A stretch of DNA of 63,483 nucleotides, counting the filler, from Klebsormidium nitens (Eukaryota; Plantae; Klebsormidiophyceae): assembly GCA_000708835.1 (NCBI GenBank). It is 4 parts of 4 records of this genome, joined end to end, with 100 filler letters (N's around TTAATTAATTAA, not from the genome) between each part and the next. Parts side by side here need not be neighbours in the genome. Positions count along the whole stretch, not along the records: positions 39,601 to 59,811 come from DF237651.1; 3 more parts are not named here. One strand, written 5' to 3'. The position numbers and the translations under genes are program-made. The notes under the pieces were generated by a model. It made no database searches. It was not told the DNA's origin and worked only from the letters and a program-made list of their open reading frames with translations. Shown here in pieces: positions 10,101-59,911 of this stretch. The stretch's first letter is position 1. The number at the start of each line of letters is the position of its first letter.

Positions 10101-12230
10101 AATACTTGCACACTATATCCTGCCACTGAAACTCAACCCCCGTTGGTTGCATGAAGTTGCGGTCCAAGTAGTACGCATTAGCGTACCGCTCCCCCATCTG
10201 GATAATGTTCACAGCCCGCTGCGCAAAAACATGCCGACAACCGCACACCGTGCACCCCGTTTCGTCTTGCCCGCGGATGGCGCTCTTCGAATCCCTTGCC
10301 GCTTTCCAATCACCCGCTCCACACGCCCTGTCCGGCCTCTCAATACCCCGCGCCTCGTCTATGGCCTTAATGCTCGCTTGCACCTCAGCGTCTGAAGAGA
10401 AGAAAAGCTTCTCGTAGTATGACTTGCGACTGGGATCGTACGCGCGTGCCCATCGGTACAGCTTCCGGTTGCTGTCCACCGCGCATGAGTGCTGCTTCGC
10501 CCAACAGGCAGGGCAGACAAGGCCAGATTGTAGAGCGGCGGGGTACTTGGCGCTGTGCTGCGCCATCTTGAATTCCCCAAAGGCGGTCGTCATCGTGTGA
10601 CGGTTGATGCTGGGCACCTGATTCAATTAAAATGAAGAAGTTCATCCCAAGATGCCCTCACAACTGGACTCGCCTGACAATGATTCAAGGATACTGGAAT
10701 CCAAGATACAAAAGAGCGCTAGCAAACAGGCAATTGTGCCCCAGGTTCGATACTGGATTGCAGGTCCATGTCACGAGACAAGTAGCGAAGCTCAGTCGAA
10801 CAGCAAACCAGATCTCCTTCAGAAGCCCTCACATCCATAGGGCTTCGGTTACAGAACGCAAGCTTCTGACTGCAGCGTCTAGCAACAACCGATTACATCT
10901 AGTTGCAGGAACCATGAACCCATCCCTTCTTATGTTTGCCACTGCAAGCCAGACATCTCCTTGAAAGCCGTTCCATTGAAAAGCAGCCAACGAGCTGACT
11001 TCCGTACTTTCTTTCACATACTGCATGGGCACAGACATAAAAAGAAGAGAGCGCAAGCAGTACATACTGGGACAAAGGCTGAACCTGCCTTACTCTTCCA
11101 TGATCGCGAGAGATGCCTTCCAAGACTTTCACGAGCGCTGTCATGGAAGCGCCGGGCTGGTCTTTGCTCATCTTTCCCCAAAACTCGAGAAGCGCGGTAT
11201 CATACATCGTTCTACAGTCGGACACCGTTCCTGGCCAGGCCCCCAGGTCAATAGCATCGAGTGAGCCCTGCTCATGTGACCCTCCGCAGCCCGCAGTCTG
11301 GCAAAGGAATGCCGCCCTCACAAAATCAAACCTCCCGGCTAAAGTGACAACTGTGAGTGGCTTATTAGTGGGGCGAGCTGCTCCCCAGAAGCACATGCCG
11401 CAGCCAGCGCAAGCTGCAGTGGGAGGCTTGGCAAAGACCTTGACGCTGCGCACCAGCTTCCCATTCTGCACCTCAGAATCGGGGCCAATTGGCTGCCAGC
11501 ATTGGCCCTCTAGCGTAAGATATTCACGGCGGTGGAAGTGAGCGTGCGGGTGCAGCAGATGATCGCACGCGGAACACGTTGGCTGACCTTGAGTGCAGTC
11601 AAAGCACCTCACTGCTTGCAGCCCTGCGCATCCCGGTGTGCTGCACTTTTCTTTACAAGCCCCAGGTCCCGCAGCTTGACGACGCAGCAATGACGCTGCG
11701 AAGAGATGCCGACTCTGCTCCCACTCTCTCAACTCCCTTTCAGTCCTGCGTGACCAATTGGGGTTCCGTTTAGCTTGTTCAGCAGTCTCCTCATCGTCGT
11801 AGAGGTCCTCCTCAAACTCTTCAACAAGATCCTCATCCCAACCAGTGAAACCACCCCCGCCAAAGTCCTCCCTAACCCCGCTGCCAAGGCTGTCTCTCCG
11901 AGCATCTGCAGGCCCCTCGCGCTCTCGCTCCCTGTCTCCCTGCCCACCGCTCTCAGCCCGTGGCTTTTGCGGCCGCGGGGCTTGCTCACTAGGTAACCGC
12001 TCCCCTCGTTCATCATACTGATAGACCGGAGGAGCGCGCGGTCCTCGGTCCCTTCCAGAGCCTTCAGCTGCTCCGCCCTCAGATGGGTCATCTAGCAATG
12101 ACCCAGAATGGTGACTCTCTGCTCCAGAGTCGCCGCTGAGTACCTCATCAAACCCTCCACCTGGAAAGCCTAAGCTGTCTGAACTGTCAGATTCCCGGCT
12201 TCTCTTGCGAGAATCCGAGGAGTCCGCCAT
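7110..12230 (-). CDS. KDZ transposase with CxC cysteine clusters, 5 exons (12230-11094, 10617-9994, 9299-9182, 8889-8808, 8334-7110), ~1061 aa; intron-2 donor is non-canonical
   Basis: CFDC..CSACD..H..HFH; CPAC..AVDSNRKL; DETG..CGCRH..GERY..QDIVCKY; HGKLHSWQCQ|VLFGG..AGEDMELLFSYL; RVDAITEAVLHWN. Intron phases are mutually consistent. Confidence 0.88.
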
Positions 12231-26700: not shown

Positions 26701-26744
26701 NNNNNNNNNNNNNNNNNNNNNNNNNNNNNNNNNNNNNNNNNNNN

Positions 26745-26756
26745 TTAATTAATTAA
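26745..26756. other. Assembly linker TTAATTAATTAA inside N gap (also 39545-39556, 59856-59867)
   Basis: Identical 12-mer with stops in all six frames embedded in N runs. Confidence 0.9.
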
Positions 26757-26800
26757 NNNNNNNNNNNNNNNNNNNNNNNNNNNNNNNNNNNNNNNNNNNN

Positions 26801-37368: not shown

Positions 37369-39780
37369 ATATGATCTCGGCAAAACATGGCACCTTGCCA
37401 CAGCCTTCCAAGTCGTATTCTGACGCTACAGCTACCGGTTATTTGGATTTCACGGGACAGATTTTTCCGATCCGCATCGCTTTTAGTAAAGGGTATCTGC
37501 ACGCAGCTTGTCAATGTGATCGGTGAACTTGATAAGAGACGTATTACGCTCTGCCTGTCTCGGACTCACCCTTCCGCAAACCGCAAGCAATCTATCCGCA
37601 GTTTTTTGATGAAATCTTGATCTTCCAACACCCTTGCTATCAGTCGGAAACAGTCCCGTTGGCGTGCGTGAAAGGACGCTGTTTCGACAAGGCCTCTACG
37701 AGTCTGCACAGCCCCCAAAAGCCAGCGTCGCTTTCACCCCGGACATCACCACGTGTCACGATCGAGGAACGGCAATACCAGTGCGCTGCGAGCATCGGAT
37801 ATGCCAGCTTGCTTCTTGAGTTTCTGAACGCTCTCTCAATTGGCCTCAAGAAGGAGAAACATGACATTCCGAAACCGATGTTCCTGTGGCTACAAAGTCG
37901 CACAGCACCAGTCGGAGCTGTCAGGGTGAACTTTTGCGTTGCCTTTCTACGATATTTGCCCATCTTCATTCTCTAATACACTTGCTGGCGACTTTGTCCT
38001 TCGTTAAGATCTCCGCCACAATCACGCATGCGCTTCGGTCTTGAGTGACCACAAACCAGCCTCTCGACAATCTATGCGTGAGAAGCTGTGCAGAACGGCC
38101 GCGCAATGCGACTCAGGCGCAAAGGCATCTCGACTCTTGGGAATGAGTGACGACGTGGCAAGGGCTCATTTGAGAGCCGTAGTGGATAAGCATGTATAAT
38201 TTGGCAGCACGCCACTCCACTGGAAGCTGACAGTACTTGACGCCGCAGCTCTAGAAAGCGTTCGTGCGTTTATGCGTTATCTGAGACGACGCTGTGACGC
38301 TGAAAGACTCCTTCTCTTTCTGTTCTTAGCGTCTTCTCAGAAAGTTCTGTGCCATCCAGACGAAGCCGCGAAAATCCACCTGCCAAGTCCTTTTACCCGT
38401 TATACCCGTTTGTTATATCCGGAGCCAAAAACATGTCGCTCTTTGTGAAGTTCTGACGCATGGGCTACTTCCCGGGGGTAGGCCGATCGTTTTGAGGTCC
38501 TCTGTGGCTCGTTAGAGCAATTAATATTTAAACTTGAACTGGGACTTCGCGAGGCTTCGCTTCATAAGTCGAGGCTCCGGCGGGGCCATGCTGCAAAGGC
38601 AATGATGTTTCACTTGGTTGGCAGAAGACTGCCACGTCACCATTAAAGTCAGCGACAGATGCCTTATCAGAAATGATAGATTGCAGCACGATCTTACTTT
38701 GGCATGCTTGCACGCTCGATTTTGCTAACCCCGAAGTCCCAAGACGTTCTCTTGAGGCAACTCAAAGGTGATTGAAGCTGCCGACTGCAAGCCTTCTATG
38801 ACTAGTGCTCTGCGTCTGTTCAAGATTCTACCTCTCATGTGTTTATCAGTGCGGATGGTGAATGTCACAAAATCCTCAAGTGCTATTCAAAACGTCTGAG
38901 GTCGACCGTCTACCAGGCAATGATGGAATATTCTCTTGGTGGTGCAGTCTTTCTCCACCAAGCAGAGTGATGAACGCGCACTGAGCTGCTAATGAAACTC
39001 TGTAACCTACTCAAGAATCTGTTGCTCCTCGTTTTTGTCTCCAAAATATACCAACAAGAATGGAAGTGACTTCCAGAAAACTCCGGGGCTCCGTTCTTTG
39101 GCGACGTGTAGCCGACGTCGTTAACAACTTTGAAGAGGTTGGCTTGGACGTTATTCGGTCATTAGACGCGCACAAAAGCCTTGTGGTTCTTCGAAAAAGC
39201 GTTCCAAATTAACCTTCGGGTGAGGCAAAGGCGGGGAAGCACGCGGCCGCATCCTGGTAGGTGCGCTCCGCGCGGCCGCGCTGCCGCGAAGCCATTGCCG
39301 TTGGGGCGCGGCAATCTTTCTAGGCTCCGGAACCGTCCTCCAGAACACTAATCTTCTGAGATGCAAACCGTTTTCGGGGGCGCGGGGCGCTGCTCAAACT
39401 TTGGCATCGGTTCCCGGGCCGATATAAAGTCTGAATTTTAAACCGTCTCCGGGGCTTTCTCCTGATTTTCTGATCTAACCGCTTGCCGCTTGTCTGACTT
39501 NNNNNNNNNNNNNNNNNNNNNNNNNNNNNNNNNNNNNNNNNNNNTTAATTAATTAANNNNNNNNNNNNNNNNNNNNNNNNNNNNNNNNNNNNNNNNNNNN
39601 TCTGAACAGACTGTATGAGTCCTGATGTCCAACCCCCAGCTCCACAGAAGACATCCAAGAAGGTTACCATCTGTCTTGAGGTGGAAGTAGGAGAATAAGT
39701 AGCCTTATAGAGACGCGCAGTGGTATTTGAAGAGCACTCGGTTCAGACCGACTCACTTCTCTCTCAAGTCATGCTATGCT

Positions 39781-40389: not shown

Positions 40390-41995
40390 TCAAACCCGCT
40401 GCGATCGATAGCGGGCTACTTCTTCTGCCAACCGTTGATGGTGGTACGCGTCCTTCCTCGCGCGCGCCTCGAAGGCTTCCAACTTCTGGCGCAACACGAC
40501 GCTCTCCTCCTGCAGAGAGCACGCGTCAAATCACTCAAGGACACGGCTTCTTTCAAGAGGCCTGTGCTAATGTAATCAAGACAGACTACGAAGCGAGTCC
40601 TTGATATGCATTGGATTCCGGTGTCCTTACCTCGACCCTCTCAGCGCGGCGGCGACAATTTGCCGCGATGACTTTCTGCTCCTTCACCTCTGCTTCGAGA
40701 GCAGTCATTCGCTTCTCCATGCTCGCCTTCTGAGCGATCAGAAGTGCAGCGTCAACACCGAAAGACACGAGACCATCCGCCAACCTGTACGGCAGCAAGG
40801 CTTCCTTGGTACCTGCACTCGCCCAGTCCTGTACGAGGCTGCTTTTCAGTTCCCAGTTTGTCCTACGAGCATCGAATCGTTAGAATTTCCAGAACTCCAA
40901 AAATCCTTGATCTCAGCAAAGTGATTGCTGACGATGAGGGTCAACTCGTATCGGCAGCTTTTGCAGTACCAACACCGGAACTTCTCGTACCAGCCACTCA
41001 GTTCTTTGTTACCTTTCAAGAGCGTTTCGAATTGCCACTGTATCCAGACACAGCCAAAACTCTTCTCACACAAGTAAAAAATCTTGTCGACCAGCGTACA
41101 CAACTCATGCAACTCGGCAAGGGAGTCCATGTCAGTGAAAGCCAACAGTACTTTCCCGCGCAAGCTTGAAAGGCGTCTGGGTGTGGTATCTTTCCCTATA
41201 CAAACAATGTACAATGTTGTTCCAAGGAACCCTGCAACTTGGCATCGCGGGTGCAGCGCCCTGCCTAGAACAGACTCACTCTTTTGTGTCTGTTACGAGG
41301 GTTTCCATAGGGTCCTCCTTCACCAGAGGCTGCTCCACGCCCACCTCTGCTGCGAAGGCTTTTGCGTCCGCAACGAGTGCTTCCAACGAGTCCTGCTTCA
41401 CCTTCAGAGGCTTCACCTCGCTGTTGGTGATATCTTTGAGCAGCGAAGGATCCTCTGTCTCCAGCTTCCTCAGGCCCACGTAATGACCATTGTTCCTGAG
41501 CTTTGTGAGCTGAAGATGAATAGGGTCACCACCCGAAAGCCTGGGTGGAGTGTAGACATCTGCCCCTCCTTCCCTGTGAACGATGATGTCCCTCCCCAAG
41601 AATCTGGCTACGCACATAGCCTCCAGGTCACCGGACCACCGTCCAGCTTTCGCAACATTCTACAAGGAAATCGGATGGTAGTCAGCTCAGCCTCTTCTTA
41701 GATTCTCAACCACTCATAGCATGGCATCATACAGAAGACTCACTCTTTGCAGCGATGATGCAGGAGCTCAGAGCCTCACCTCCACTTTGCCAAACTGGAC
41801 CGCCAACTGCAGCTCTTCATCCAGCCCGGCATTGAGCGCAATCTCATGTGCTTTCTTCCTCAGGTGTGGCACGTCGATCGACAGGTGCGCTGAAGCGATG
41901 ACAGCCGAGAAGAAGCAGTCTCCATCACGGGGAACGTCCATCACCTCATAGCCGGCTACCAGAGAGACGGGCGCGTGCCTCCTGCGCGCTACCAT
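40390..41995 (-). CDS. OTU-family cysteine protease with coiled-coil tail, 4 exons (41995-41780, 41659-41280, 40862-40631, 40509-40390), 315 aa
   Basis: DVPRDGDCFFSAV (Cys loop), WSGDLEA, NNGHYVG (His); all GT-AG with consistent phases 0/2/0. Confidence 0.75.
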
Positions 41996-42333
41996 GGTGC
42001 TCAAAGATATGAATCCCTCGATAAAACGTGACCGGGACGACCTGGAATCCTCTTTCTCTCCTCACATTCTCTCCTCAACCCTATTCCGGGCTCTTTCAAG
42101 TCTTGATTACCACCCAGTCCGATTCTTTGGGCAGTGACCGAATAAGGGCGAAAAATTTGCCGCGCAAATCCTACGCGGCAATAATACGAATTTTACACGT
42201 GCAAAAAGTACCGACCGTCGATATTCGCCGCCAATTCGTCAAACCCTAGACCACAGTGCTGTGTGGTTCTGCCTACATTATGGCTGGAAGTTTGATTTGA
42301 GAAGCAGACTGAAGAGTAGGCACCAGGGGGGAG

Positions 42334-44840: not shown

Positions 44841-45266
44841 CCGCGTTTGTATGGACTAACTTTCTTCCTTAAGGGATAGTATGCTAACACATGTTGCATC
44901 ACTGGGCTTCGCTGACCTTGGACCTTTGCTCCTAGAATACCCCGTCGCAAAACGGATAGAGACCTTCATTCAAAAGGCACCATCTCAGTCCTCCGATGGG
45001 ACCTCAGTGATTCAGCTCGCGAGGTGTTCCGCAGGTGTACTCGTTATGGGCCGAAGGTCTACGGTATAGCTAGGGAGTCACAGCAAGTGATGTCCTAAAA
45101 ACGAAAAGTTTCTTCTGGTACCAGGCCAGCCCTGGCGGCCAGAGGAAAGCCAGTCAACTCTGGTATTATTATCATTTCTCGCTCCGATTCGTCACCTGCG
45201 TTACGTCAAAGAGGCGACAGTTTGGGCGAAACTGGTAATAACGAGAGAATGTGTCTTTCAACGGTG

Positions 45267-45780: not shown

Positions 45781-47835
45781 ATGCCAACGTTCAAGGGAGA
45801 ACTGAGTGCGACCAGGAACCCTTCAAACGAGCTGGCTTTCATCTTTAAGGCGTGGACCAGCGACTCTGCGGGGGATCCCGTCCACGAAAAGGCCGACACG
45901 TACCCGTTTCCCGGTGTGACTGATTTCGAAGCTCTATGTGCTGAAATCTTCTCGACGGTCGAGGAGTTCTGCAAGAGGAGCTCTTCAGACACCACGCCGG
46001 CGTCCGAGGACCAGCCCGCGTCCGATTCCACGCCCTCCGATCAGCCCCCGGCTGCGGACCAACCAGCTGCAGACGAACCCGCCGACCAGCCCCCGGTTGC
46101 GGACCAACCAGCTGCAGATTCCACGGCCTCCGATCAGCCCCCAGCTGCAGACCAACCAGCTGCAGATTCCACCCCCTCTGATCAGGTCCCAGCTGCGGAC
46201 CAACCAGCTACAGATGAGCCCTCAGACCAGTCCCCGGCTGCGGACGAACCAGACCAACCAGCTGCTTCAGAAAAGCCCTCAGACCAGCTCCCGGCTGCAG
46301 ACCAACCTGCTACAGACAAGCCCGCCGACCAGGCCCCGGCTGCAGATCAGCTCGCGTCCGAATCTACGGCCTCCCCAGCTGCAGATTCCACGCCCTCTGA
46401 TCAGCCCCCAGCTGCAGACCAACCAGCTGCAGAGTCCACGCCCTCTGATCAGCCCCCGGCTGCGGATCAGCCAGCTGCAGATTCCACCCCCTCCGATCAG
46501 CCCCCAGCTGCAGACCAACCAGCTGCAGATTCCACGCCCTCCGACCAGCCCCCAGCTTCGGACCAACCAGCTGCAGATTCCACCCCCTCCGATCAGGCCC
46601 CAGCTGCAGACCAACCAGCTGCNNNNNNNNNNNNNNNNNNNNNNNNNNNNNNNNNNNNNNNNNNNNNNNNNNNNNNNNNNNNNNNNNNNNNNNNNNNNNN
46701 NNNNNNNNNNNNNNNNNNNNNNNNNNNNNNNNNNNNNNNNNNNNNNNNNNNNNNNNNNNNNNNNNNNNNNNNNNNNNNNNNNNNNNNNNNNNNNNNNNNN
46801 NNNNNNNNNNNNNNNNNNNNNNNNNNNNNNNNNNNNNNNNNNNNNNNNNNNNNNNNNNNNNNNNNNNNNNNNNNNNNNNNNNNNNNNNNNNNNNNNNNNN
46901 NNNNNNNNNNNNNNNNNNNNNNNNNNNNNNNNNNNNNNNNNNNNNNNNNNNNNNNNNNNNNNNNNNNNNNNNNNNNNNNNNNNNNNNNNNNNNNNNNNNN
47001 NNNNNNNNNNNNNNNNNNNNNNNNNNNNNNNNNNNNNNNNNNNNNNNNNNNNNNNNNNNNNNNNNNNNNNNNNNNNNNNNNNNNNNNTGCAGATTCCACC
47101 CCCTCCGATCAGGCCCCAGCTGCAGACCAACCAGCTGCAGATTCCACGCCCTCTGATCAGCCCCCGGCTGCGGACCAACCAGCTGCAGATTCCAAGCCCT
47201 CCGATCAGCCCCCGGCTGCGGACGAACCAGCTGCAGTTTCCACCCCCTCTGATCAGGCCCCATCTGCGGACCAGCCAACTGCAGACAAGCCCTCAGACCA
47301 GTCCTCGGCTGCAGATCAGCCCGCGTCCGAATCAACGGCCTCCCCAGCTGCAGATTCCACCCCCTCCGACCAGCCCCCAGCTGCGGACGAACCAGCTGCA
47401 GATTCCACGCCCTCTGATCAGCCCCCGACTGCGGACGAACCAGCTGCAGATTCCACCTCCTCTGATCAGCCCCAAGCCGCAGACAAGCCCTCAGACCAGC
47501 CCCCCGCTGCAGACCAACCAGCTGCAGATTCCACGCCCTCCGATCAAGCCCCAGAGGAAGCTGAACCCACCGAGCCAGAAGCAGCAGCACGCGAATATGC
47601 TTATCTGGATGATGATGCTAGTACGTTCCAGATCAAACGTGCTGGACCTACGAAGTACGAGGTGTCCACTACCTACGAAGTCTGGGCATCGGAGAAGGAT
47701 CATGCAGATGGACGTCCTTCGATCCGGACGGAACCGATCCGCATCGTCATGTCTCTGTGGGACTTCCCACACATGTACGGTCGCATGCACGCGGAGATGA
47801 AAGAGAAGCATGCGGGGAAAACCAACCCATTATAA
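45781..47835 (+). CDS. Pro/Ala/Asp/Ser-rich repeat protein spanning a gap
   Basis: 16-aa unit ADSTPSDQPPAADQPA (48 bp) in many degenerate copies between short unique termini. Confidence 0.8.
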   Translation: MPTFKGELSATRNPSNELAFIFKAWTSDSAGDPVHEKADTYPFPGVTDFEALCAEIFSTVEEFCKRSSSDTTPASEDQPASDSTPSDQPPAADQPAADEPADQPPVADQPAADSTASDQPPAADQPAADSTPSDQVPAADQPATDEPSDQSPAADEPDQPAASEKPSDQLPAADQPATDKPADQAPAADQLASESTASPAADSTPSDQPPAADQPAAESTPSDQPPAADQPAADSTPSDQPPAADQPAADSTPSDQPPASDQPAADSTPSDQAPAADQPAXXXXXXXXXXXXXXXXXXXXXXXXXXXXXXXXXXXXXXXXXXXXXXXXXXXXXXXXXXXXXXXXXXXXXXXXXXXXXXXXXXXXXXXXXXXXXXXXXXXXXXXXXXXXXXXXXXXXXXXXXXXXXXXXXXXXXXXXXXXXXXXXXXXXXXXXXXXXADSTPSDQAPAADQPAADSTPSDQPPAADQPAADSKPSDQPPAADEPAAVSTPSDQAPSADQPTADKPSDQSSAADQPASESTASPAADSTPSDQPPAADEPAADSTPSDQPPTADEPAADSTSSDQPQAADKPSDQPPAADQPAADSTPSDQAPEEAEPTEPEAAAREYAYLDDDASTFQIKRAGPTKYEVSTTYEVWASEKDHADGRPSIRTEPIRIVMSLWDFPHMYGRMHAEMKEKHAGKTNPL

Positions 47836-49476
47836 GTCGCGGCTCTGAAGTCCAAAGACTTCGTCCGATACGTCCGCGTCTGCTGAATACATCGGTGCTT
47901 CGTATCTATGGATGGCATTGGGTCCTGCCATCTCTAACTCATCTTCGCTCTCCGAATCTAGTTCTTCCTCGGACGTGGCCGAATCGCTCTCGTCCCCGTG
48001 TAAGCCATCAAGCCTCCGCAGCGGATCTGGATCGTAGAAGGGGTTCAAGACCTTGTCGTCGAAATGCCCCCTCATCTTCGGGATGAGGTACCTCACTACC
48101 ATGATCAGGTTGTGATTCACGCCGTGAAACATGTACAGCTGCTCCCCGTTGGGTCTGTAAAAGTTCAGCGTCATGGAACTCAGTTGTCCTATCGGGTGGA
48201 ATCTCCTGTAAGGCACGCTCGAGTAATCGAAGCGGGACGTGGCATAACCCACTACGGCCAGTTTGAACAGCGCAAGTCCGAAGCTGTGCTTCTCGTAAGA
48301 GCGGCCTTTGTAGATGTGGGACTCGATCTCCGGAATTCTAAGCACGCAGTACGAGTCTCCCACTAGATTCAATATACCAGGAGCCTGGATGGTCTGCGTT
48401 CCTTGAGAGACCACTACGGTCATGACGACGCTCTTGTTCGTTATGTCCTGACCCGAAACGGCCGCGTTGGTCCAAGTGCTTCCGTCGGTAGAGTAGAGAA
48501 GTTGATTTGCACTGGCTATGATGGGCGTGCCATAGTACAGATCCACCTCTCCGACCGTAGTCGAACAAGAATACACCAGCCAGTATTCGACGCCCGCGGT
48601 TATCGCCGCTCCGATCGAACTTATGTCGCCACTCGTGGTGAACCCGGATATGCTCTGATCGGGGGTCGGGTAATTCAAGGCGGGGATTTGCGCGCCCGAG
48701 TAGAGAATCGCACCGGGTTGCTCTTGTACGGGATCGTTGCTGGTTATGAACCAATCTATGACCCTATCATCAGCGTCGCTCGTGACCGCGCAGGCGATGC
48801 GGATCTCTTTCAAGAGACCCGTCTTGGTCGCTACGAATTTCTGAGCGATGTACTCGACTGTAGAACCGTTAGGGCCTGCGAAAGGAATGGCTAATTCTAC
48901 CGCTTGAGGTCCCTCGAAAGCAAACACTTGTACTTCGTTCTCGGTTATGCTGCTATACGTGCCGGGACTCGAGTATGGGTCCAAGCAGCGGAACCTATCG
49001 TTCAAGTATTCGTGTCCTGCAGCATCCTCATCGAATCCCAGGACGGCGCGTATGGTCGAAGAGCCCATGAGAAAGTGAAATGGCGTCGGAGATGTGAATT
49101 TCAGCATGTTACGCAACTCTGGCGGGTTCGATTCTGCTACCGTAGTGATGCCACGTAGAGATAGTTTGTCATTCAGAGCAGCGATGAGCGAGGTGTCCGT
49201 ATGATCTCCGTTTGCAATCTGGATGATCTCCGGTCCATTGCCAACATCTACGACGAGACTGTTATTCACTTCATCGACGCTGTATTGCGTCCTAGGAATC
49301 GTTGCATCCACGACATCTATGCCGATGACTTGACGGAAAGGCGAATCGAAAGTGATCTGATACTGGTTAGGATAAGGCCAAGTACGTCTGTCACGAGTAC
49401 TCGAATTTACATTGTACATGTAGCTCTCTTCGATACTGTTCTCCATGAGATACTGAATATCTTCTATACTCCCCAT
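47830..49476 (-). CDS. DUF5901-like / putative penton (minor capsid)-type NCLDV protein
   Basis: N-terminus SIEDIQYL..NSSTRDRRTWPYPNQY.I.F..PFRQVIGIDVVDATIPRT; C-terminus FHPIGQLSSMTLNFYRPNG.LY.FHGVNH. Confidence 0.75.
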   Translation of the reverse strand: MGSIEDIQYLMENSIEESYMYNVNSSTRDRRTWPYPNQYQITFDSPFRQVIGIDVVDATIPRTQYSVDEVNNSLVVDVGNGPEIIQIANGDHTDTSLIAALNDKLSLRGITTVAESNPPELRNMLKFTSPTPFHFLMGSSTIRAVLGFDEDAAGHEYLNDRFRCLDPYSSPGTYSSITENEVQVFAFEGPQAVELAIPFAGPNGSTVEYIAQKFVATKTGLLKEIRIACAVTSDADDRVIDWFITSNDPVQEQPGAILYSGAQIPALNYPTPDQSISGFTTSGDISSIGAAITAGVEYWLVYSCSTTVGEVDLYYGTPIIASANQLLYSTDGSTWTNAAVSGQDITNKSVVMTVVVSQGTQTIQAPGILNLVGDSYCVLRIPEIESHIYKGRSYEKHSFGLALFKLAVVGYATSRFDYSSVPYRRFHPIGQLSSMTLNFYRPNGEQLYMFHGVNHNLIMVVRYLIPKMRGHFDDKVLNPFYDPDPLRRLDGLHGDESDSATSEEELDSESEDELEMAGPNAIHRYEAPMYSADADVSDEVFGLQSRDL

Positions 49477-49527
49477 GGTTCTACTCGCTGTCTACGAAAA
49501 AGAGCGCCTATACCTGGACGAAGGCAC

Positions 49528-51338
49528 CTAGAGTATGCGCCTGCGCTTGGCGCTTTCCTCTTCTCCTGAACTATGAAATTCTTTGATCTCCTTCAGGAGG
49601 ACTGCTCTGATGTTCCGTTCTGTGACCTCCACCGTGGAGTCTTCGTAGTAGTCGGTCGTCATCTCCTCTCCGCAGTCGGTGTCGGTCCGGGCGTCCCCGA
49701 AGTAAGGGTGCCTCAACGCTTCCTACAGCAACACGAGACTCATAAGAACTTATAGTACAACCTGATCTCTGCTTCGATGGGACACACGGGAAGCTCATCT
49801 ACGATGCTCCATCCCCGTTTCTCGTAATGACGCCGCAGCGCAGCTTTTCCTCGCAGGAACTTCCCGTCCAGTGGATCCCGAAACACGAATTCTAGCTGAC
49901 CAAGCGCGCTGTGCTCCATGTATACCTCTACACCGTGCTTCCTAGCATTGCTGAGAGTTGGTAGGCGAGAGGCTTTGTCCTTGACGGTGCTTTGGAGACT
50001 GAGAGTTTCGACGTATATGTGCAGCGTGCCTATGTTTGACGTTGAGAGCCTCTTCTTCCTGGCATTGTTGCGCTTCTGGACGCCTTGTGGAATCTTGACC
50101 TTGATCTCCATCTTTGAAATGCCACTGAGAAGCTTCTAAAGTTCCTTATATGGCCATCGTGTGACTTTCGGGCGCTCTTTTCGGACGCTTCGGTCGTAGG
50201 GGCCCGAACATCTTTTCGTGTGCCGTTTTTCGGACGGTGTCTATCGATATACGGACGATTCGGTTTCGGACGCAAATTTTCGGGCGCCAGAGAAGTAGCT
50301 CACCTTGGCCGTAATCCTCTTGGACGGGTCGAATCGAAGCAGCTGCTCGAGCAGGTCACGTGCCTCCGCGGAAGCACTGGGGAAACGGGCCTCCAGCGAA
50401 ACACCGGCAGAGTGGGGAGCTAGATCCCAGATGTAAGCCTTGGCTCTATCGTTCCCCACGAACTCGAGGTCCTCTTCCAAGGGGGTTCCCACGAACCTCA
50501 CGATCAAGCGCAGCTGTTCCAGGTAGTTTTTCCCAGGGAAAAGGACTGACCCAGCAAGCAACTCCCCAAAGATGCAACCCACCGCCCAGATATCGATCTC
50601 CGGCCCATACATGTCCTGCGAGATGAGCAGCTCTGGCGCCCGATACCACCTGGTGACGACGTATTCCGTCATCGGCCCATAGAGATTCTGGTTCCGTGCC
50701 AGGCCTAGGTCGCAGATCTTCAAGGTGCTGTCGTAGTTGATCAGGCAGTTGGAGGGTTTCAGGTCCCTGTGGATCACCCCTCTTTCGTGCATGTACTGGA
50801 CCCCTTTCAGCAGCTGCACGAACAGAACGCTCCTTTGATTTACGCAGAGAAGAGCGATCGTTTGCAACCAATGCACAGAAGCGGACCGATGCTGAGAGAT
50901 GCTCACGCGAATGAGAGGATGTAGAAGTATTCATACCTGATGGACGAGGATCCTGACGTGTTCCCCGCTTATGGCCAGCGTCCTCATCGCTCTGTGCAAG
51001 TCAATGTCCATGAGCTCTGTGACTATGTAGACGTCATGAAAACCCTTGTCTGCCGGTCTCATTACGTCTTTGATGCCGATGATGTTGTCGTGCTTTAGAT
51101 TTTTCATGATGCGCAGTTCTCTCACTGTCCTCTGCGCTTCCAACTTATTTTCCGTCGCATTGATGATCTTTTTTATGGCGACTTCTGCACCCGTCCTCAC
51201 GTCCTTCGCCGCACAGACCACTCCGAAAGCGCCTTTGCCTACAAGTCTGATGCACTCGTATCGCTCGTCCACCTCGAAAAGGTGACCCTCCAGGCGGTAG
51301 CGGCGCTTCCCAGACGGGCAATCCTTGGAGCTCGCCAT
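49528..51338 (-). CDS. MPK: MAP kinase, TEY type, 3 exons (51338-50937, 50813-50304, 49722-49528), 368 aa
   Basis: GKGAFGVV, VAIKK, HRDLKPSN, DLGLAR, MTEYVVTRWYRAPE; splicing restores HQ|LLKG and RITAK|EALRHPYF. Confidence 0.92.
49740..50111 (-). CDS. MBD-like (methyl-CpG-binding fold) protein nested in MAPK intron 2
   Basis: LGQLEFVFRDPLDGKFLRGKAALRRHY aligns with the MBD motif [25 protein letters not shown]; basic NLS-like RKKR; 123-aa ATG-to-stop ORF. Confidence 0.65.
   Translation of the reverse strand: MEIKVKIPQGVQKRNNARKKRLSTSNIGTLHIYVETLSLQSTVKDKASRLPTLSNARKHGVEVYMEHSALGQLEFVFRDPLDGKFLRGKAALRRHYEKRGWSIVDELPVCPIEAEIRLYYKFL
50166..50286. promoter_or_regulatory. Array of five TTTCGG[AG]CG motifs upstream of the nested MBD-like ORF
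   Basis: Copies at 50166, 50179, 50228, 50264, 50278; TATA-like CATATAAG just upstream of the ORF on the minus strand. Confidence 0.55.
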
Positions 51339-51701
51339 CCTCTCCCGAATTAAAAAGTCAAAGGGTCCCTACTTTCGGTCTTAAATACCCACACCCATCT
51401 CGGACGCCTCCCTCTGCCCGAGCACCCGAAAGAGTTTCACCGTCCGAAAGTAAGCGTACTCTACTCCTCTGATCGCAAAAAGAAGTCTTTCCGATCGCAG
51501 AATGGAGAGATGGATCAGCATACGGTCTATTCGCCGACACCTAGGAAGCGCTGCGTCAGCATAGAGGCTCTGGGATGTAAGCTGCTCATCAAGCACGCGA
51601 GGATAGCAGAGAAGCCAGCAGAGAATGTCGTCGCGCTGAGGATCCTCGATCACGAGTCCAGACGGGATCGCGGCATAGCTAGAGAGAGTCTTCGCAGTCG
51701 A

Positions 51702-52085
51702 TTACAGCGGCGGAAGCTCCTGGCGTCGGCCAGAGATGTCTGCGCCTCGGAGGTGGAATCTCTTCAGTCTGGCAAAGGTCGCTTCGTCGATCTTGATCTT
51801 GATGTGGCAATGGAAATGCGTCTTCCACTGCCCCAAGTTGTAGGTCAGAGAGCAGTCGCTGCAGCCAGAATAGGCTCTGACCATCTCGATGGCCTCTAGG
51901 AGGATGGCTTTGAGGTCTTCTCCAGGCAGGTCCGTCAGGTGTTCCACGTGCAGGAAGGGTGTATAGATGAAGTACCGTCGATTTTTTAGGTCAAAGTGCA
52001 GGCGTCCGAGCTTACCATCTTTGATTATATGGGACACTATACGAGGCGACACGTCTGGTGAACAAGTGTAACAGACTCTTTCCAT
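51702..52085 (-). CDS. HIT-like (histidine triad) protein
   Basis: N-terminal CYTC, PFLHVEHLTDL, NLG..THFHCHI (HxHxH). Confidence 0.7.
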   Translation of the reverse strand: MERVCYTCSPDVSPRIVSHIIKDGKLGRLHFDLKNRRYFIYTPFLHVEHLTDLPGEDLKAILLEAIEMVRAYSGCSDCSLTYNLGQWKTHFHCHIKIKIDEATFARLKRFHLRGADISGRRQELPPL

Positions 52086-52387
52086 CACTTTACCTTCCGC
52101 GTTCTATCCAGATAACTCGACAGTGCACCCGTGAGGGACCCTGCCACGATGAGAGTGCTCGTGAGTGTCGCATCAGAGAGATGAGCGGAAGCGTTTCTCA
52201 GAGTGATGCATGTGCCGGATGTGGACGTGATCATGGACCGGAAGAAACCAGCTGAGCAGTAATTCTCGTGCAGCTTGTCGAGGACGAATCTCAGTGAATG
52301 ACAGCTCAAGAATACCCCGCCGGCGGAAAGGATGGGCGAAATAAAAGTGTATCCTAGTCTTACAGCAGCTTTGGCACAGTCCTTCAT
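52085..52387 (-). CDS. Small hypothetical membrane protein, NCLDV-like
   Basis: Two hydrophobic segments around LHENYCSAGFFRSMITSTSGTC; stop overlaps the next ATG (TGATG). Confidence 0.6.
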   Translation of the reverse strand: MKDCAKAAVRLGYTFISPILSAGGVFLSCHSLRFVLDKLHENYCSAGFFRSMITSTSGTCITLRNASAHLSDATLTSTLIVAGSLTGALSSYLDRTRKVK

Positions 52388-52446
52388 AGAGGACTTGCCC
52401 TATATAGTGACCGTATACTAAATTTCCACCGCAGGAACGCAGTTTC

Positions 52447-52998
52447 ATGGACGAAATAGCGAAAATACCTCCTAAAGCTCGGATCATGCACGTCCCTGGC
52501 GACGGGAGTTGCCTCTTTCACAGCGTCTTTCTAGCTTTCTATGACTGCTGCAAGGGGCTGCATAACGTGAAGTATACTGAGAAGGCACTCGTAGATGCCT
52601 CCAGTCACCTGAGGGGATTGGTCGTGGATTACGTACTCGAGCACTACAGGAAACCCCTCGGGGGCATTCCTGGGAACATGTGCGGGCGAGAACTGATAGC
52701 ATTAGAGTATGCATCAGACGCAACGGACGGAGAAGGCAGCGTACGTGGACCTTCTACGTATGCGCGCATGATGAGGAACACCAACAAGTATGCGGGGATC
52801 ACGGAGCTACATGCATTGAGTGCCTTGTTGGATGCCGTCATCGTGGTCCATTACTCGGGAGGGGATGGGCGGCACGAACTCTTAGACACTCTCAAGAGAG
52901 GACCCTCGCACCTCATCATCTTGCACGTGTTGTTCGACCCCCAGACTAAGCACTACTCGCCGATCCTATGCAGCGAGCTTTCGACCGAGAAGGGTTAA
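52447..52998 (+). CDS. OTU-family cysteine protease, intronless
   Basis: HVPGDGSCLFHSV, YAGITELHALS, KHYSPI. Confidence 0.88.
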   Translation: MDEIAKIPPKARIMHVPGDGSCLFHSVFLAFYDCCKGLHNVKYTEKALVDASSHLRGLVVDYVLEHYRKPLGGIPGNMCGRELIALEYASDATDGEGSVRGPSTYARMMRNTNKYAGITELHALSALLDAVIVVHYSGGDGRHELLDTLKRGPSHLIILHVLFDPQTKHYSPILCSELSTEKG

Positions 52999-53046
52999 AA
53001 GTTTCTCTTCCCAGAGATCTCATCGTTTATGTCTCTCAGTAGCTCT

Positions 53047-55798
53047 TCATGTCGCTGCCAAGTCTATCGGAGCGGTCCACACATACCCTTGGATGGGGTT
53101 GTAGATGCTGATCCTGTTGACCACCATCCCCTTCAACCTCGCCAGAGCCGCATACGTCAAAAGCTGCAGCACCCACGGCGCTTGGATACCACTCTTCTCC
53201 GCGCTGCACTTGATGTCGAGGATGCAGTCTCCCACGATGAGGTCCGCCACACCACGCAACGACTCGGTGGAGAGGTCCGTGTCGGTCGCCACCCCGAACA
53301 ACTGGTACATATCGTCCGGGGTGATGACCACTGGCAGCATGTCCACGGCTCCGTGCGACTCCAGGTGCTTTTCGATGATCGCCTCCACGAAGCGCTTCGT
53401 GCAACCGAATAGGCCTAGGTTCTTATCCTTGGACAGATCTCCCAGGTGGAGGTCGGTGAACGCGAAGTAAGTCCTGGCCAGTGGATATACCAGGTGCGCG
53501 CACACCGCTACGTCAGTGATCTTGCGGAGCGCTCTCCTACTCTCCGTGTCGTGGTCGAAGCCGATGTACTCCTTGTAACTCTCCCGGATGCGCTTCAGCG
53601 TATCCTCGAACCGCTTCGTGCGGAGCAGGGAGTCCTTGCTGCTCTTTGCAAATGCAGGAAGGCTCCTCCCGTCAAAGTGCATGACGATCCTCGTAGGGTC
53701 CACATCGAACTCGGCCGCCAGGGAGCGGACCATGCCCTCCACCTGTTCGGGGGTCGGCTCCGGCAGAGTCCAATTGTCTTCGAATGCCTTTACCCAGAGG
53801 AAGCACTTGTCCGCGAAGTGATCCGTCATCTTGACGGGATGCCCCTCCAAGTGGCTCAGACGCAGACACGCAGACATGACATGCCTATATATGACCCTTT
53901 CCACCGCAGAACCGTAGAGTATGTTGGTGTCGCCCGAAGCTGGGAAGCCGTGCACGGCGTGGAGCCTTTCGAAGGTCGCTCCGGGGTACGTCCGAGGGAT
54001 GACCCCACGCTGCTTCGAGCGGTCGTAGAATTCGCCCGAAGCGTGGCGGACGAAGTTGGTGACCGACCTGTTGGGCGGCAGCTGCCCGTCCGTGTCTCCG
54101 AACGTCCCAAAGATGGGAGTGGAGGACTTTTCGTCGTCCGTCACCAGTTCGTACGTAGTCCGGCTCGCCGGGAACAGAAGCCGGGTGATGCAGCGGCTGG
54201 GGCTCGTGATCAGCAGGGAGTCCTTGGCTCGCGTACAGGCCACGTAGAAGAGGTTGCGTTCTTGCTCCAGCTCTTCCTTCGTCAAGCACCGGTTGAGCAT
54301 GTCCGTGCAACCTATGACGATCACGGAACGCCACTCGAGCCCCTGCAGAGGATTTATTTTCTGCTGAAAACAATAAAATGGCTTTCAACCCCGTAGATCT
54401 CGCAGTACAGGCGGCATCTGGAATGAAACCGATCAATTGGACGGTCGTCTACGTCCTCGCAGGAGTGGGTGTCTTCTTCGCCCTCCTCATCACAGGCATC
54501 ACGTACGTGGTCATCCCAGCTACGAAGGTGGATCATGACACCGGGCGAAGGAAGAGCAACATGGGAGTGCGTCTTGCGATCACTTTCGTCGTGCTGTCTT
54601 TCTCCATACTGATATGCGGAAGTATCGGGTGGTCCCAAGGAAAGGATCTGGCGACGTGCTGGGCCAATCCGAAATTCTGCGCTGGAACGACGGCGATGGG
54701 CATGGCCGTAGACGATATCTTTGGTCGATCCTAGCTCACCTTCGCTCCGTGCATCGTGCACAGCGTGATCCAATCGCACTGGTCGCCTTTCCTCTTGACG
54801 GGTGTCGGTTCCGAGTCGCCTGTGTAGATCCTCGTCGCGTAACCCAGCTCCGTGAGCTTGTGAGCCAACGTGTACACCTCTCGCTGCGTCCTCGCTATCA
54901 CAGCTATGTCACCCAGGTCCCCTCCCGTCTTCGAGGCATGTGCGGCTACCTTCTCCGTCACGAAACGGACCTCTTCCGCCCGATTCTCGAAGACTGCGAG
55001 TCTGGGAGGCTCGGACGCGCAAGTCCTGACGTGTTTCATGGCATGACTGGATCGATCCGGGCGGATCTCGTTGCAAAAAGCTACCAGTGCTTCCGTACTC
55101 CTGTAGTTGTTCAGGAGCTCGAACGACTCGCAGGGGTAGGTGCCCAGCCGTGCGACCTTGGCCAGGAGGGTCGCATCGGAGGCGCGGAAAGCATAGATGT
55201 TCTGGTTGACGTCGCCCACCGCAAACACCCTCGTCGAATAACGCTCGACCAGCAACCGTATGACGTCGAACTGCGTCTGGTCAAGATCCTGAGCCTCGTC
55301 GACCAGCAGGAAATGGGGCACGAGAGACCGGATGGAATCGGACGTCTCCTGGTCTACCACAGTCCGGAAGGCCCTGAGCAGCCTGTAGATGTGCTCGTCC
55401 GGGAGGAAGACCTCCGATTCTGCGTTGCAGAAGTACGTCTCCTTCTCGCTGGCCACGAAAGCAGCCTCTAGCTTCTCTCCGTCCGCAGACCAGGGGCACG
55501 CATTAGGGAGGGTGAAGCGAGCCCGTCTGAGGATCGGGTCGAAAGCCTCCGCTAGCTCAAGACAGAATGAGTGAATGGTCGATGACTTCACCCCATCGGG
55601 CAGCCTAGCAGACACATCTGCGCTGGCTTGCCTGGAGAAGGTGACCACCCTTATCTTGGACGGACGTACGTCCTTGCACGTCACGAGATGTATGACTCTC
55701 TGCACCAGAGTCCTGCTCTTCCCAGCTCCAGGGCAAGCGGTGACCCTTATGTGCTTCTCGGTGTCCGCTTCTATGATGGGCCGCTGATTCGTGTCCAT
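53047..55798 (-). CDS. UvrD/AddA-like SF1 helicase fused to a PD-(D/E)xK nuclease, 2 exons (55798-54740, 54342-53047)
   Basis: ACPGAGKSRTL, TFSRQA, TIHSF, LVDEAQD, VGDVNQNIYAFR, NYRST, TMHGAK|GLEW, ERNLFYVACTRAK; C-terminal GVADLI..ILDIKCS..LQLLTYA. Confidence 0.9.
54378..54734 (+). CDS. Two-TM membrane protein nested antisense inside the helicase intron
   Basis: 118-aa ATG-to-TAG ORF with A-rich leader AAAACAATAAAATG and two clear hydrophobic helices. Confidence 0.8.
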   Translation: MAFNPVDLAVQAASGMKPINWTVVYVLAGVGVFFALLITGITYVVIPATKVDHDTGRRKSNMGVRLAITFVVLSFSILICGSIGWSQGKDLATCWANPKFCAGTTAMGMAVDDIFGRS

Positions 55799-55904
55799 GC
55801 TGGTAAGCAATATGCATTAACGTACATGTGTCACGCCATCCTTCCTAAGTTGGAGAAAAGAGACGGTTCGGTTTCATGTTGTAGGAAAATCACTTTGGAA
55901 CAGA

Positions 55905-58399
55905 TCAATTGTACATACGGAGGACGTATTCTGGGAGACTGGAGGACTGTAGCCACGGGGCCAGTAGTTCTTGTGTACAAGCGACTCTCTCATTCTCTGG
56001 CACGAACGGTAATATGCTATCGAGCTGCTCCAACAGTCCAGAGGAGGGCGCAAGAAGCCGCAACTTTTTCAGAGGGTTCCTGAACTCCTCCGGAGTCCCT
56101 TCCAGACGGAGCCGTTTCTCCACTGCCACAGGGCTCTGCAGTAGCAGCTGTGCTTGCTTCCAGTAAGCTTCCGTTGGACTCAAACCTTCCCAAATAGTGA
56201 TGAACCCGTCTCGCAAATGGAGTAGGTTGTGCTTCTCCCCGTCGCACAGGTCATAGATGAGAGGAAACGAATTCACTGCCAAAGAAGCAAGATAGCAAAC
56301 CAAGGCTTGTCCTCTGTGTGATCCATATTGGACGGGTCCAGAAGATCCTGCCGACTTGCCACTCTGCAAGAACAAAAATTATCATTTGCGCTCAATCAGT
56401 ACTGCAGCTAAATGCCCAATGCGGAACTCAATTCCACAAAGGTGTATGACTCTGCGTGTTATCCAGTAATTTGTGCATGAGTACTACAACAACGTGCCGA
56501 TTGGTTCATACAACAATCCATGCACATTTGTCGTGCAAACATTGAGAACAACTTACCGCTCCTGCGGAGGTCGAGATACGCTCTCTGTAACGCTGCCTCT
56601 GGTCTTCGGTCTGCTTATGCTCGAAGAGCACTCTGCATTGTCTAGCAGCAGACTCAGCGTACAGACCAAATGGCGCCAGAAGTCCATCTGCAGTGCCTGT
56701 GAACTGGGCTTCATCTGGAGCAGTGATGGCGTAGAGTGTCCGATTTGTATGAATGTCATATATCTGGAAAGCCCCCCGTCCAAAAGGCACCCCATACTTC
56801 TGAAGCTGTCGCTGATGGTGTTCGAGTAGAGCAGGAGTACCAGCGTCTTCGTTGGGGTAAAGGGAGTAATCAAAACTTTCTGCTTCCGGCGTATCTTTCT
56901 GAGGGCGGGACGACTGGATCCTCAGAGTTCCCAGATTCTTCAGCAAAATCCAGTTGGGCCAGGAGCTTCTGAGCTTCCACGGAACCGACCTTGGAGAAAC
57001 TCTTTGGTTTTCTCTCCTCCTGCTTTCGCATCTCTTCAAGCAGCGTCTGCAAGCCTGCTTGGAACTGGTCCACCGTAAGGACCCCACTCATATCAGCCCC
57101 ACCTGCAGCTGCAGAAAGCAGAGCAAGTAATGTATGTAAGCAAGTTCCCCGTAACGCAATTGTTGATTTATTACCATTTTCGCCCAAACTGTCGCCCCTG
57201 TTATGTAATGGGGGTCACAAGAAAAGGCGATGAATAGCAATAATGCCGGAGTTAACTGGCTATCCCTCAGCCGCCCAGCGTCCTTGGTAGGCAGAAACTG
57301 ACCAGAGTAAANNNNNNNNNNNNNNNNNNNNNNNNNNNNNNNNNNNNNNNNNNNNNNNNNNNNNNNNNNNNNNNNNNNNNNNNNNNNNNNNNNNNNNNNN
57401 NNNNNNNNNNNNNNNNNNNNNNNNNNNNNNNNNNNNNNNNNNNNNNNNNNNNNNNNNNNNNNNNNNNNNNNNNNNNNNNNNNNNNNNNNNNNNNNNNNNN
57501 NNNNNNNNNNNNNNNNNNNNNNNNNNNNNNNNNNNNNNNNNNNNNNNNNNNNNNNNNNNNNNNNNNNNNNNNNNNNNNNNNNNNNNNNNNNNNNNNNNNN
57601 NNNNNNNNNNNNNNNNNNNNNNNNNNNNNNNNNNNNNNNNNNNNNNNNNNNNNNNNNNNNNNNNNNNNNNNNNNNNNNNNNNNNNNNNNNNNNNNNNNNN
57701 NNNNNNNNNNNNNNNNNNNNNNNNNNNNNNNNNNNNNNNNNNNNNNNNNNNNNNNNNNNNNNNNNNNNNNNNNNNNNNNNNNNNNNNNNNNNNNNNNNNN
57801 NNNNNNNNNNNNNNNNNNNNNNNNNNNNNNNNNNNNNNNNNNNNNNNNNNNNNNNNNNNNNNNNNNNNNNNNNNNNNNNNNNNNNNNNNNNNNNNNNNNN
57901 NNNNNNNNNNNNNNNNNNNNNNNNNNNNNNNNNNNNNNNNNNNNNNNNNNNNNNNNNNNNNNNNNNNNNNNNNNNNNNNNNNNNNNNNNNNNNNNNNNNN
58001 NNNNNNNNNNNNNNNNNNNNNNNNNNNNNNNNNCTGTAATAATGTTATAGTTTGCGCAGAACAAGATAATGTTCAGTGCAATGTGCTGGACAGACTCGAA
58101 CTTTTTGAAGGATGTACCCTCGAACAGATAGATAAATTCATACTCCAAAGGTAAGGTCACAAACCTGCAGATTGCAGTCGGACCCTCTCGTCTAGCAGCT
58201 TGTTCTTCTCATCGCGCATTTTGTTCTCCGTCTCACGCAACTGCTGTAGCTCTATGGACCACCGTCGCACAGCTTCCAAATTGTTGATTCTCTCCGCACC
58301 CTCGACCTTTTCCTTTGCTTTTTGAATCTGCGGCGCTAGAAGCTGGATACATTCATTCACCTGAGCTATTTCCGAGTTGACTGCCTCCACGGAACCCAT
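55905..58399 (-). CDS. Crinkler-like / restriction-endonuclease-fold protein with coiled-coil N-terminus; 3 exons (58399-58165, 57108-56557, 56363-55905), 1-nt frameshift ~56886
   Basis: N-terminal VEAVNSEIAQV..W..ELQQLR..E; FTGTADG..CRVLFEHKQ; QALVCYLAS..FPLIYDLCDG; GT-AG sites with consistent phases; assembly gap in intron 1. Confidence 0.6.
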
Positions 58400-59811: not shown

Positions 59812-59911
59812 NNNNNNNNNNNNNNNNNNNNNNNNNNNNNNNNNNNNNNNNNNNNTTAATTAATTAANNNNNNNNNNNNNNNNNNNNNNNNNNNNNNNNN
59901 NNNNNNNNNNN

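Follow-up and report, generated by a model that had tools for sequence, protein, structure and literature searches.

The window analysed here, a stretch of 63,483 nt from Klebsormidium nitens, carries on its minus strand a MAP kinase gene that is divided into three exons by two GT-AG introns, both in phase 0. Exon 1 (50937..51338, 134 codons) matches the Pkinase family (E 5e-17) and is separated by intron 1 (50814..50936, 123 nt) from exon 2 (50304..50813, 170 codons), which encodes HRDLKPSN, a DLG triplet for DFG, and the TEY loop; intron 2 (49723..50303, 581 nt) contains a second, nested gene and is followed by exon 3 (49528..49722, 64 codons and the stop). The donor of intron 2 is GCCAAG/GTGAGC, with the first intron base at 50303, and the acceptor is TGCTGTAG/GAAGCG, with the last intron base at 49723; the KRITAK terminus of exon 2 is thereby joined to the EALRHPYF onset of exon 3. 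The pyrimidine tract of the acceptor is modest (0.6) and the branch-point-like match is weak. Judged by its GT donor, its AG acceptor, and the recovery of the frame and of a conserved protein on its removal, intron 2 has the sequence features of a U2-type spliceosomal intron.

The exon-by-exon translation of the kinase is identical in 368/368 residues to the public protein P0127, labelled in the protein collection as GAQ90925.1, KFL_007020125, from Klebsormidium nitens. Public annotation thus already includes the spliced kinase, and the expectation of the initial annotation that automated methods would miss it was mistaken; the GAQ90925.1 gene model may itself be a prediction. The top solved-structure match, MAP kinase 4 (7w5c), is colinear with the spliced product over residues 13-353 (E 1e-98) and ungapped at both junctions, and the features of TEY MAP kinases are present, including the Gly loop, VAIK, HRD, the DFG-like DLG, TEY, and the C-terminal extension. 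The claim that the sites at 50303 and 49723 restore the canonical RITAK-EALRHPYF kinase end is thus upheld by the sites themselves, the phase, the identity to P0127, and the 7w5c alignment. The kinase shares with the plant TEY MAP kinases (MAP kinase 4, 7w5c; MAP kinase 6, 6dtl) the colinearity over 13-353 and the TEY loop, but differs from them in its identity of only ~45-53% to the best cellular matches (among the best 120 of 6,131), in its long branch, and in the DLG of its clade, where this triplet replaces DFG in all four members.

The nested ORF (49740..50111, minus strand, the same as the kinase) encodes a basic protein of 123 aa with a beta-beta-beta-alpha domain, and is flanked inside intron 2 by a 192-nt leader and a tail of 17 nt from its stop codon to the acceptor, as had been described from first inspection. 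Three full-length homologues were recovered (among 8 candidates) with 51-57% identity, 94-100% coverage, and E values from 3.5e-40 to 3.2e-26; their alignment with the nested ORF contains 44 invariant columns, and Met opens column 1 in all. The suspicion that a long but ordinary intron contains this ORF by chance draws on shuffled versions of intron 2, of which 21/2000 contained an ORF of at least 123 aa, on the lack of a family match, and on a low recognition score in the ESM Atlas, where no usable match was found. ORF size alone is therefore modest evidence, and it is the three homologues that settle the reality of the ORF; the base pattern is also coding-like (GC1/2/3 0.55/0.37/0.63), and a domain model was obtained at pLDDT 77. 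A chance frame is thus extremely improbable and already refuted by the homologues, unless these are untranslated; on this conservation of its sequence, the nested ORF is a real conserved gene. Its exact sequence is not in the protein collection, which is likewise the case for 10/10 other window ORFs examined, and a search of 1.84 billion protein representatives added nothing beyond repeat-protein noise. Three long repeat-protein matches (P0124-P0126) were rejected as compositional.

The leader of the nested ORF contains five copies of a 10-nt motif with a CGYCCGAAA core (50166..50287, minus strand), which may serve the nested gene as promoter elements. The pattern CG[CT]CCGAAA has 7 matches in the window, 5 of them in this leader at 50174-50286, and none of 3000 dinucleotide shuffles of the 192 nt (0/3000) gave five copies of any 9-mer with one free position, so that the motif array previously noted before the ORF is non-random. 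A TATA-like CATATAAG (50145..50152, minus strand), whose putative function is assigned by sequence, lies 41 nt 5' of the nested ATG. Related copies of the motif, two inverted and two direct variants, are found together with TATTTAAG upstream of the kinase ATG (51373..51449, minus strand). The combination of motif and TATA-like box occurs in 2/13 upstream regions, those of the nested gene and of the kinase only, the other 11 being devoid of the motif; a sigma-70 promoter signal did not exceed chance. The presence of one motif in both upstream regions suggests co-regulation of the two genes.

The same leader allows a different reading, in which the nested ORF is an alternative last exon and the donor at 50303 joins an AG at 50136, generating a fusion of the kinase with the small domain. 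This AG is in phase 0 with the ORF, with 131 open codons, and the AGs at 50076 and 49896 are in frame too; nevertheless, a frame match is expected by chance once in three for each AG, and the would-be pyrimidine tract at 50136 is weak (0.4) and overlapped by the TATA-like box. Moreover, all three homologues open with Met in the same column, and the fusion would be deprived of the HPY motif and of the C-terminal MAP kinase segment encoded by exon 3. An alternative last exon is accordingly regarded as improbable.

The nesting appears to be kept in relatives. The three best matches to kinase exon 2 show 96, 84, and 81% identity, the remainder of the 120 listed being at 56% or less, and the window kinase forms with its three relatives a single clade (100/100) on a long stem in an unrooted tree of 41/51 chosen rows, 10 having dropped out through a pattern mismatch, which names no donor because of the long stem and the absence of an outgroup. 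At the intron 1 point, the relatives P0004, P0005, and P0128 likewise start ...Q-L[LV]KG. At the second junction, the kinase ORFs of the relatives diverge at the same codon as exon 2 of the window and the next residue is V; ordinary MAP kinases read xAL there in 169/178 cases, while VS or VR is found in the four close relatives, as expected from translation into a GT donor. In the read-through tails of P0004-P0006, two motif-coded peptides each are found (PSEN, PVRK, PSEK, GVRN), and such pairs occur in 0.06-0.35% of random stretches without stops. Furthermore, the homologue P0002 and the kinase P0005 probably both belong to a 21,568-nt contig (Logan), and P0003 and the kinase P0006 to a 2,676-nt contig (ENA), a sharing deduced from the equal contig size and source of the protein entries. 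For the third homologue, P0001, from a 3,060-nt contig, the 120 listed matches include no kinase partner. The paired contigs, the common break codon, and the motif peptides are therefore the reason why the nesting looks conserved. Searches of IMG/VR with the kinase, the nested ORF, the penton variant, helicase exon 2, and the antisense ORF described below were empty, no relatives emerged from the JGI metagenomes in the locus searches, and the one GTDB match (L001) was rejected as chance, being a 25-residue match between stops, with no other GTDB relatives.

These data also bear on the possibility that the insertion broke the kinase, which would then be unspliced, truncated or dead, in a locus reduced to a silent relic. 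Endogenous viral DNA is often silenced, and no full-length spliced member of the kinase clade is present in the best 120 of 6,131 matches. Against this stand the canonical splice sites in phase, an exon 3 that is open and still aligns to MAP kinase 4, the intact catalytic motifs, and a break point and donor-coded residue that are the same in relatives 82-96% identical. A broken kinase is thus considered unlikely, although an arrangement that worked in the virus could still be silent in this copy today.

The full-length model of the nested protein is poor (pLDDT 49.5), and structure searches were carried out with the 60-residue domain model, consisting of a helix, three strands, and a helix. 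With Foldseek, MBD chains occupied 8/10 first rows, none at E <= 0.001, and in VIA the best match was AtMBD6 (Z 4.8, rmsd 1.8 over 44 residues), tied with a dsRBD (Z 4.5), no match reaching Z 5; the top 8 VIA rows comprise 5 MBD and 3 dsRBD, all within 1 Z. The identity of the nested protein is 15-24% to the MBD chains and 2-16% to the dsRBD chains, and a BFVD search returned nothing at E <= 0.001. By sequence, no Pfam family was matched at E values up to 10, and no MBD was found in PDB profile searches. The canonical MBD, as described in the consulted part of PMC8811898, uses two arginine fingers, R111 and R133 in MeCP2. In an inferred register to MeCP2, no Arg corresponding to the first finger is found in residues 60-77 or in the aligned stretch in any of the four sequences, and at R87, which probably corresponds to the second finger, the four read R/R/H/N. 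The assignment as MBD-like in the initial annotation is therefore retained only as a lead: the three strands and the helix predicted for it resemble those of AtMBD6, MBD2, MBD4, and SETDB2, its best structural matches, but the scores are below significance and tied with dsRBD, and the protein has neither a sequence match to MBDs nor the first arginine finger. In composition it is basic (23 K+R, 13 D+E), with an N-terminal basic patch that we take to resemble a nuclear signal. It may act as a small protein that binds nucleic acid and has the shape of an MBD or a dsRBD, and it is not classed here as an MBD. From the model, a basic nucleic-acid-binding protein is predicted whose MBD-like fold would not recognise methyl-CpG in the canonical manner; that its target is the CpG-rich motif array in its own leader is a guess.

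A second filled intron is predicted 4 kb from the kinase, in a UvrD-like helicase gene with exons at 55798-54740 and 54342-53047 (minus strand). This intron (54343..54739, minus strand, 397 nt, GT-AG, phase 0) splits motif V at HGAK/GLEW, with the donor at 54739 and the acceptor at 54343; helicase exon 2 aligns from its first residue with PcrA 569-621, and motif V is contiguous in 3/4 viral relatives compared (L002-L004). The intron contains on the opposite strand an ORF of 118 aa with two hydrophobic stretches (54378..54734, plus strand), which covers 357/397 intron nt and whose stop codon is 5 nt from the donor. No homologue of this ORF was found in the family and IMG/VR searches, and it is therefore less secure than the nested gene of the kinase. 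In the region 43.6-55.9 kb, AG/GTRAG occurs twice on both strands together, and the two occurrences are those of the two gene-filled introns.

An alternative is that the nested gene serves the intron and is no independent regulator, being a resident comparable to MING-1 of mirusviruses (PMC12768974, from the part consulted), whose protein would bind intron RNA or aid the persistence or spread of the intron. In agreement with this, both filled introns start with GTGAGCTA after AAG and have a G past the acceptor, the position of the kinase intron is apparently fixed in four loci, and the dsRBD folds tie with the MBD folds. On the other hand, the nested protein has no HNH, GIY-YIG, VSR or PD-(D/E)XK match and belongs to no nuclease, maturase or transposase family; no second copy is seen within the window and no intron-free kinase allele was found, and the MBD chains exceed the dsRBD chains in identity. 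There is also no Rfam match in 43-57.5 kb, and the intron ends are without terminal inverted repeats; on these two grounds a group I/II intron or an introner transposon was rejected. An intron-serving resident is considered an unlikely explanation.

The gene that adjoins the kinase indicates the origin of the locus. A DUF5901 protein (47830..49476, minus strand; Pfam E 7.7e-180), homologous to the penton variant P1v1 of PBCV-1, is encoded 52 nt past the kinase stop and matches PDB 8h2i_bG with E 1.9e-29; P1v1 in 8h2i is the penton variant of this chlorovirus (PMC9617893, in the part consulted). With a penton-variant neighbour the block is therefore nucleocytovirus-like, in line with the viral context earlier attributed to the MAP kinase. 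The dense block extends over ~43.6-55.8 kb and includes DUF5901, DUF5755, an OTU protease, a methyltransferase, and the UvrD helicase; no major capsid or polymerase gene is present among the ORFs scanned, and no paper naming DUF5755 or DUF5901 was found in the literature. The interval from 47088 to 57311 is gap-free and runs into host-looking sequence. The block appears to be an endogenous nucleocytovirus fragment, and giant-virus endogenizations are reported for Klebsormidium in the consulted part of PMC11244446; PMC5890265, cited there for Klebsormidium viral insertions, has no such passage in the main text seen. The CpG ratio is 0.96-1.17 across most of 44-56 kb, with several outside tiles also at 1.0-1.1, a weak and noisy contrast, and the CpG profile was discarded as a marker of the viral block.

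Other features of the window are as follows. Three identical gap markers, each composed of 44 N, TTAATTAATTAA, and 44 N, are located at 26701-26800, 39501-39600, and 59812-59911, and contiguity across them is therefore unsure. An inverted repeat pair of 108 nt (45134-45241 / 57168-57275; 73% complementary, with an exact 19-nt core) brackets 11.9 kb including the kinase and may represent the ends of a mobile element or two small insertions. A 684-codon ORF with 48-nt tandem repeats, rich in Pro/Ala/Asp (45781-47835), crosses an assembly gap. Two OTU-like ORFs are present, a weak one in the flank (41768-42061) and a clear one in the viral block (52447-52998). After the last gap, long GC-rich ORFs that contain repeats and match no Pfam family lie in the segment 59912-63125, which may be a second viral fragment, and a 300-nt duplication is found at 61607 and 62446. 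KDZ transposase and CxC3 ORFs are located at 9898-12230, away from the viral block.

Taken as a whole, the locus is probably, on the evidence of its sequence, a nucleocytovirus-like block in which a three-exon kinase and a conserved intron-2 gene give separate overlapping messages from the host nucleus. According to this mechanism, host RNA polymerase II would transcribe the kinase from an upstream promoter and the host spliceosome would remove both kinase introns, while the 192 nt at the start of intron 2 would contain a second promoter, with CGYCCGAAA repeated five times and then CATATAAG, from which a short mRNA would begin near 50125. Since only 17 nt lie between the nested stop and the acceptor, this transcript would continue across the acceptor and exon 3, sharing the 3' end of the kinase. 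The nesting likely arose once in the virus lineage and would have been kept since; the gene and its promoter would have landed at an AAG/G site or in an existing intron, an insertion tolerated because splicing removes the insert.

Nested genes are common in eukaryotes. The rarity of intron-nested genes in viral DNA, asserted in the initial annotation, was overstated, since >2,000 intron-harboured genes, MING-1 among them, are described in mirusviruses in the consulted part of PMC12768974. These mirusvirus genes are the closest precedent: there too a large DNA virus carries, within one of its genes, a GT-AG intron that harbours a protein-coding gene; the intron site is apparently the same in related viruses, and no nuclease active site is evident. 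In contrast, the block described here is nucleocytovirus-like, the intron lies in a captured MAP kinase gene and not in the mirusvirus terminase, and the insert has a repeated promoter-like motif in common with its host gene; it is by this location that the two inserts are set apart here. The terms MBD, methyl-CpG, and PF01429 do not occur in the searchable supplements of the same paper. The shintrons (spliceosomal homing introns) of PMC12768974, as presented in the part consulted, are also gene-filled spliceosomal introns, but the nested protein of the kinase does not match the homing endonuclease families listed above. In punuivirus, an endogenous giant virus of Chlamydomonas, 61 intron-bearing genes with a mean intron of 176 bp are reported (10.64898/2026.10.09.758095, in part); the likeness consists in nucleocytovirus genes with host-type GT-AG introns for which host transcription is proposed, whereas the word 'nested' is not found in its main text as consulted. 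The capture of MBDs is known from Copia elements (PMC6673714, in the part consulted). A literature search with most subscription papers outside its reach found no printed report of gene-carrying spliceosomal introns in nucleocytoviruses.

The locus corresponds to an annotated gene of a model alga that can be cultured, which makes its splicing, the intronic promoter, and the target of the protein directly testable. It also shows that gene callers of the prokaryotic and of the eukaryotic style can each miss one of the two genes. A more ambitious and rather unlikely extension is that a giant-virus lineage infecting streptophyte algae packs genes into spliceosomal introns by regular design, with a new MBD-fold regulator binding the CpG-rich promoter motif of the kinase and its own as a methylation-sensitive switch, and with the helicase intron hosting a second gene. 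Two filled introns within 5 kb would extend the mirusvirus design to the other giant-virus phylum and would imply dependence on the host nucleus.
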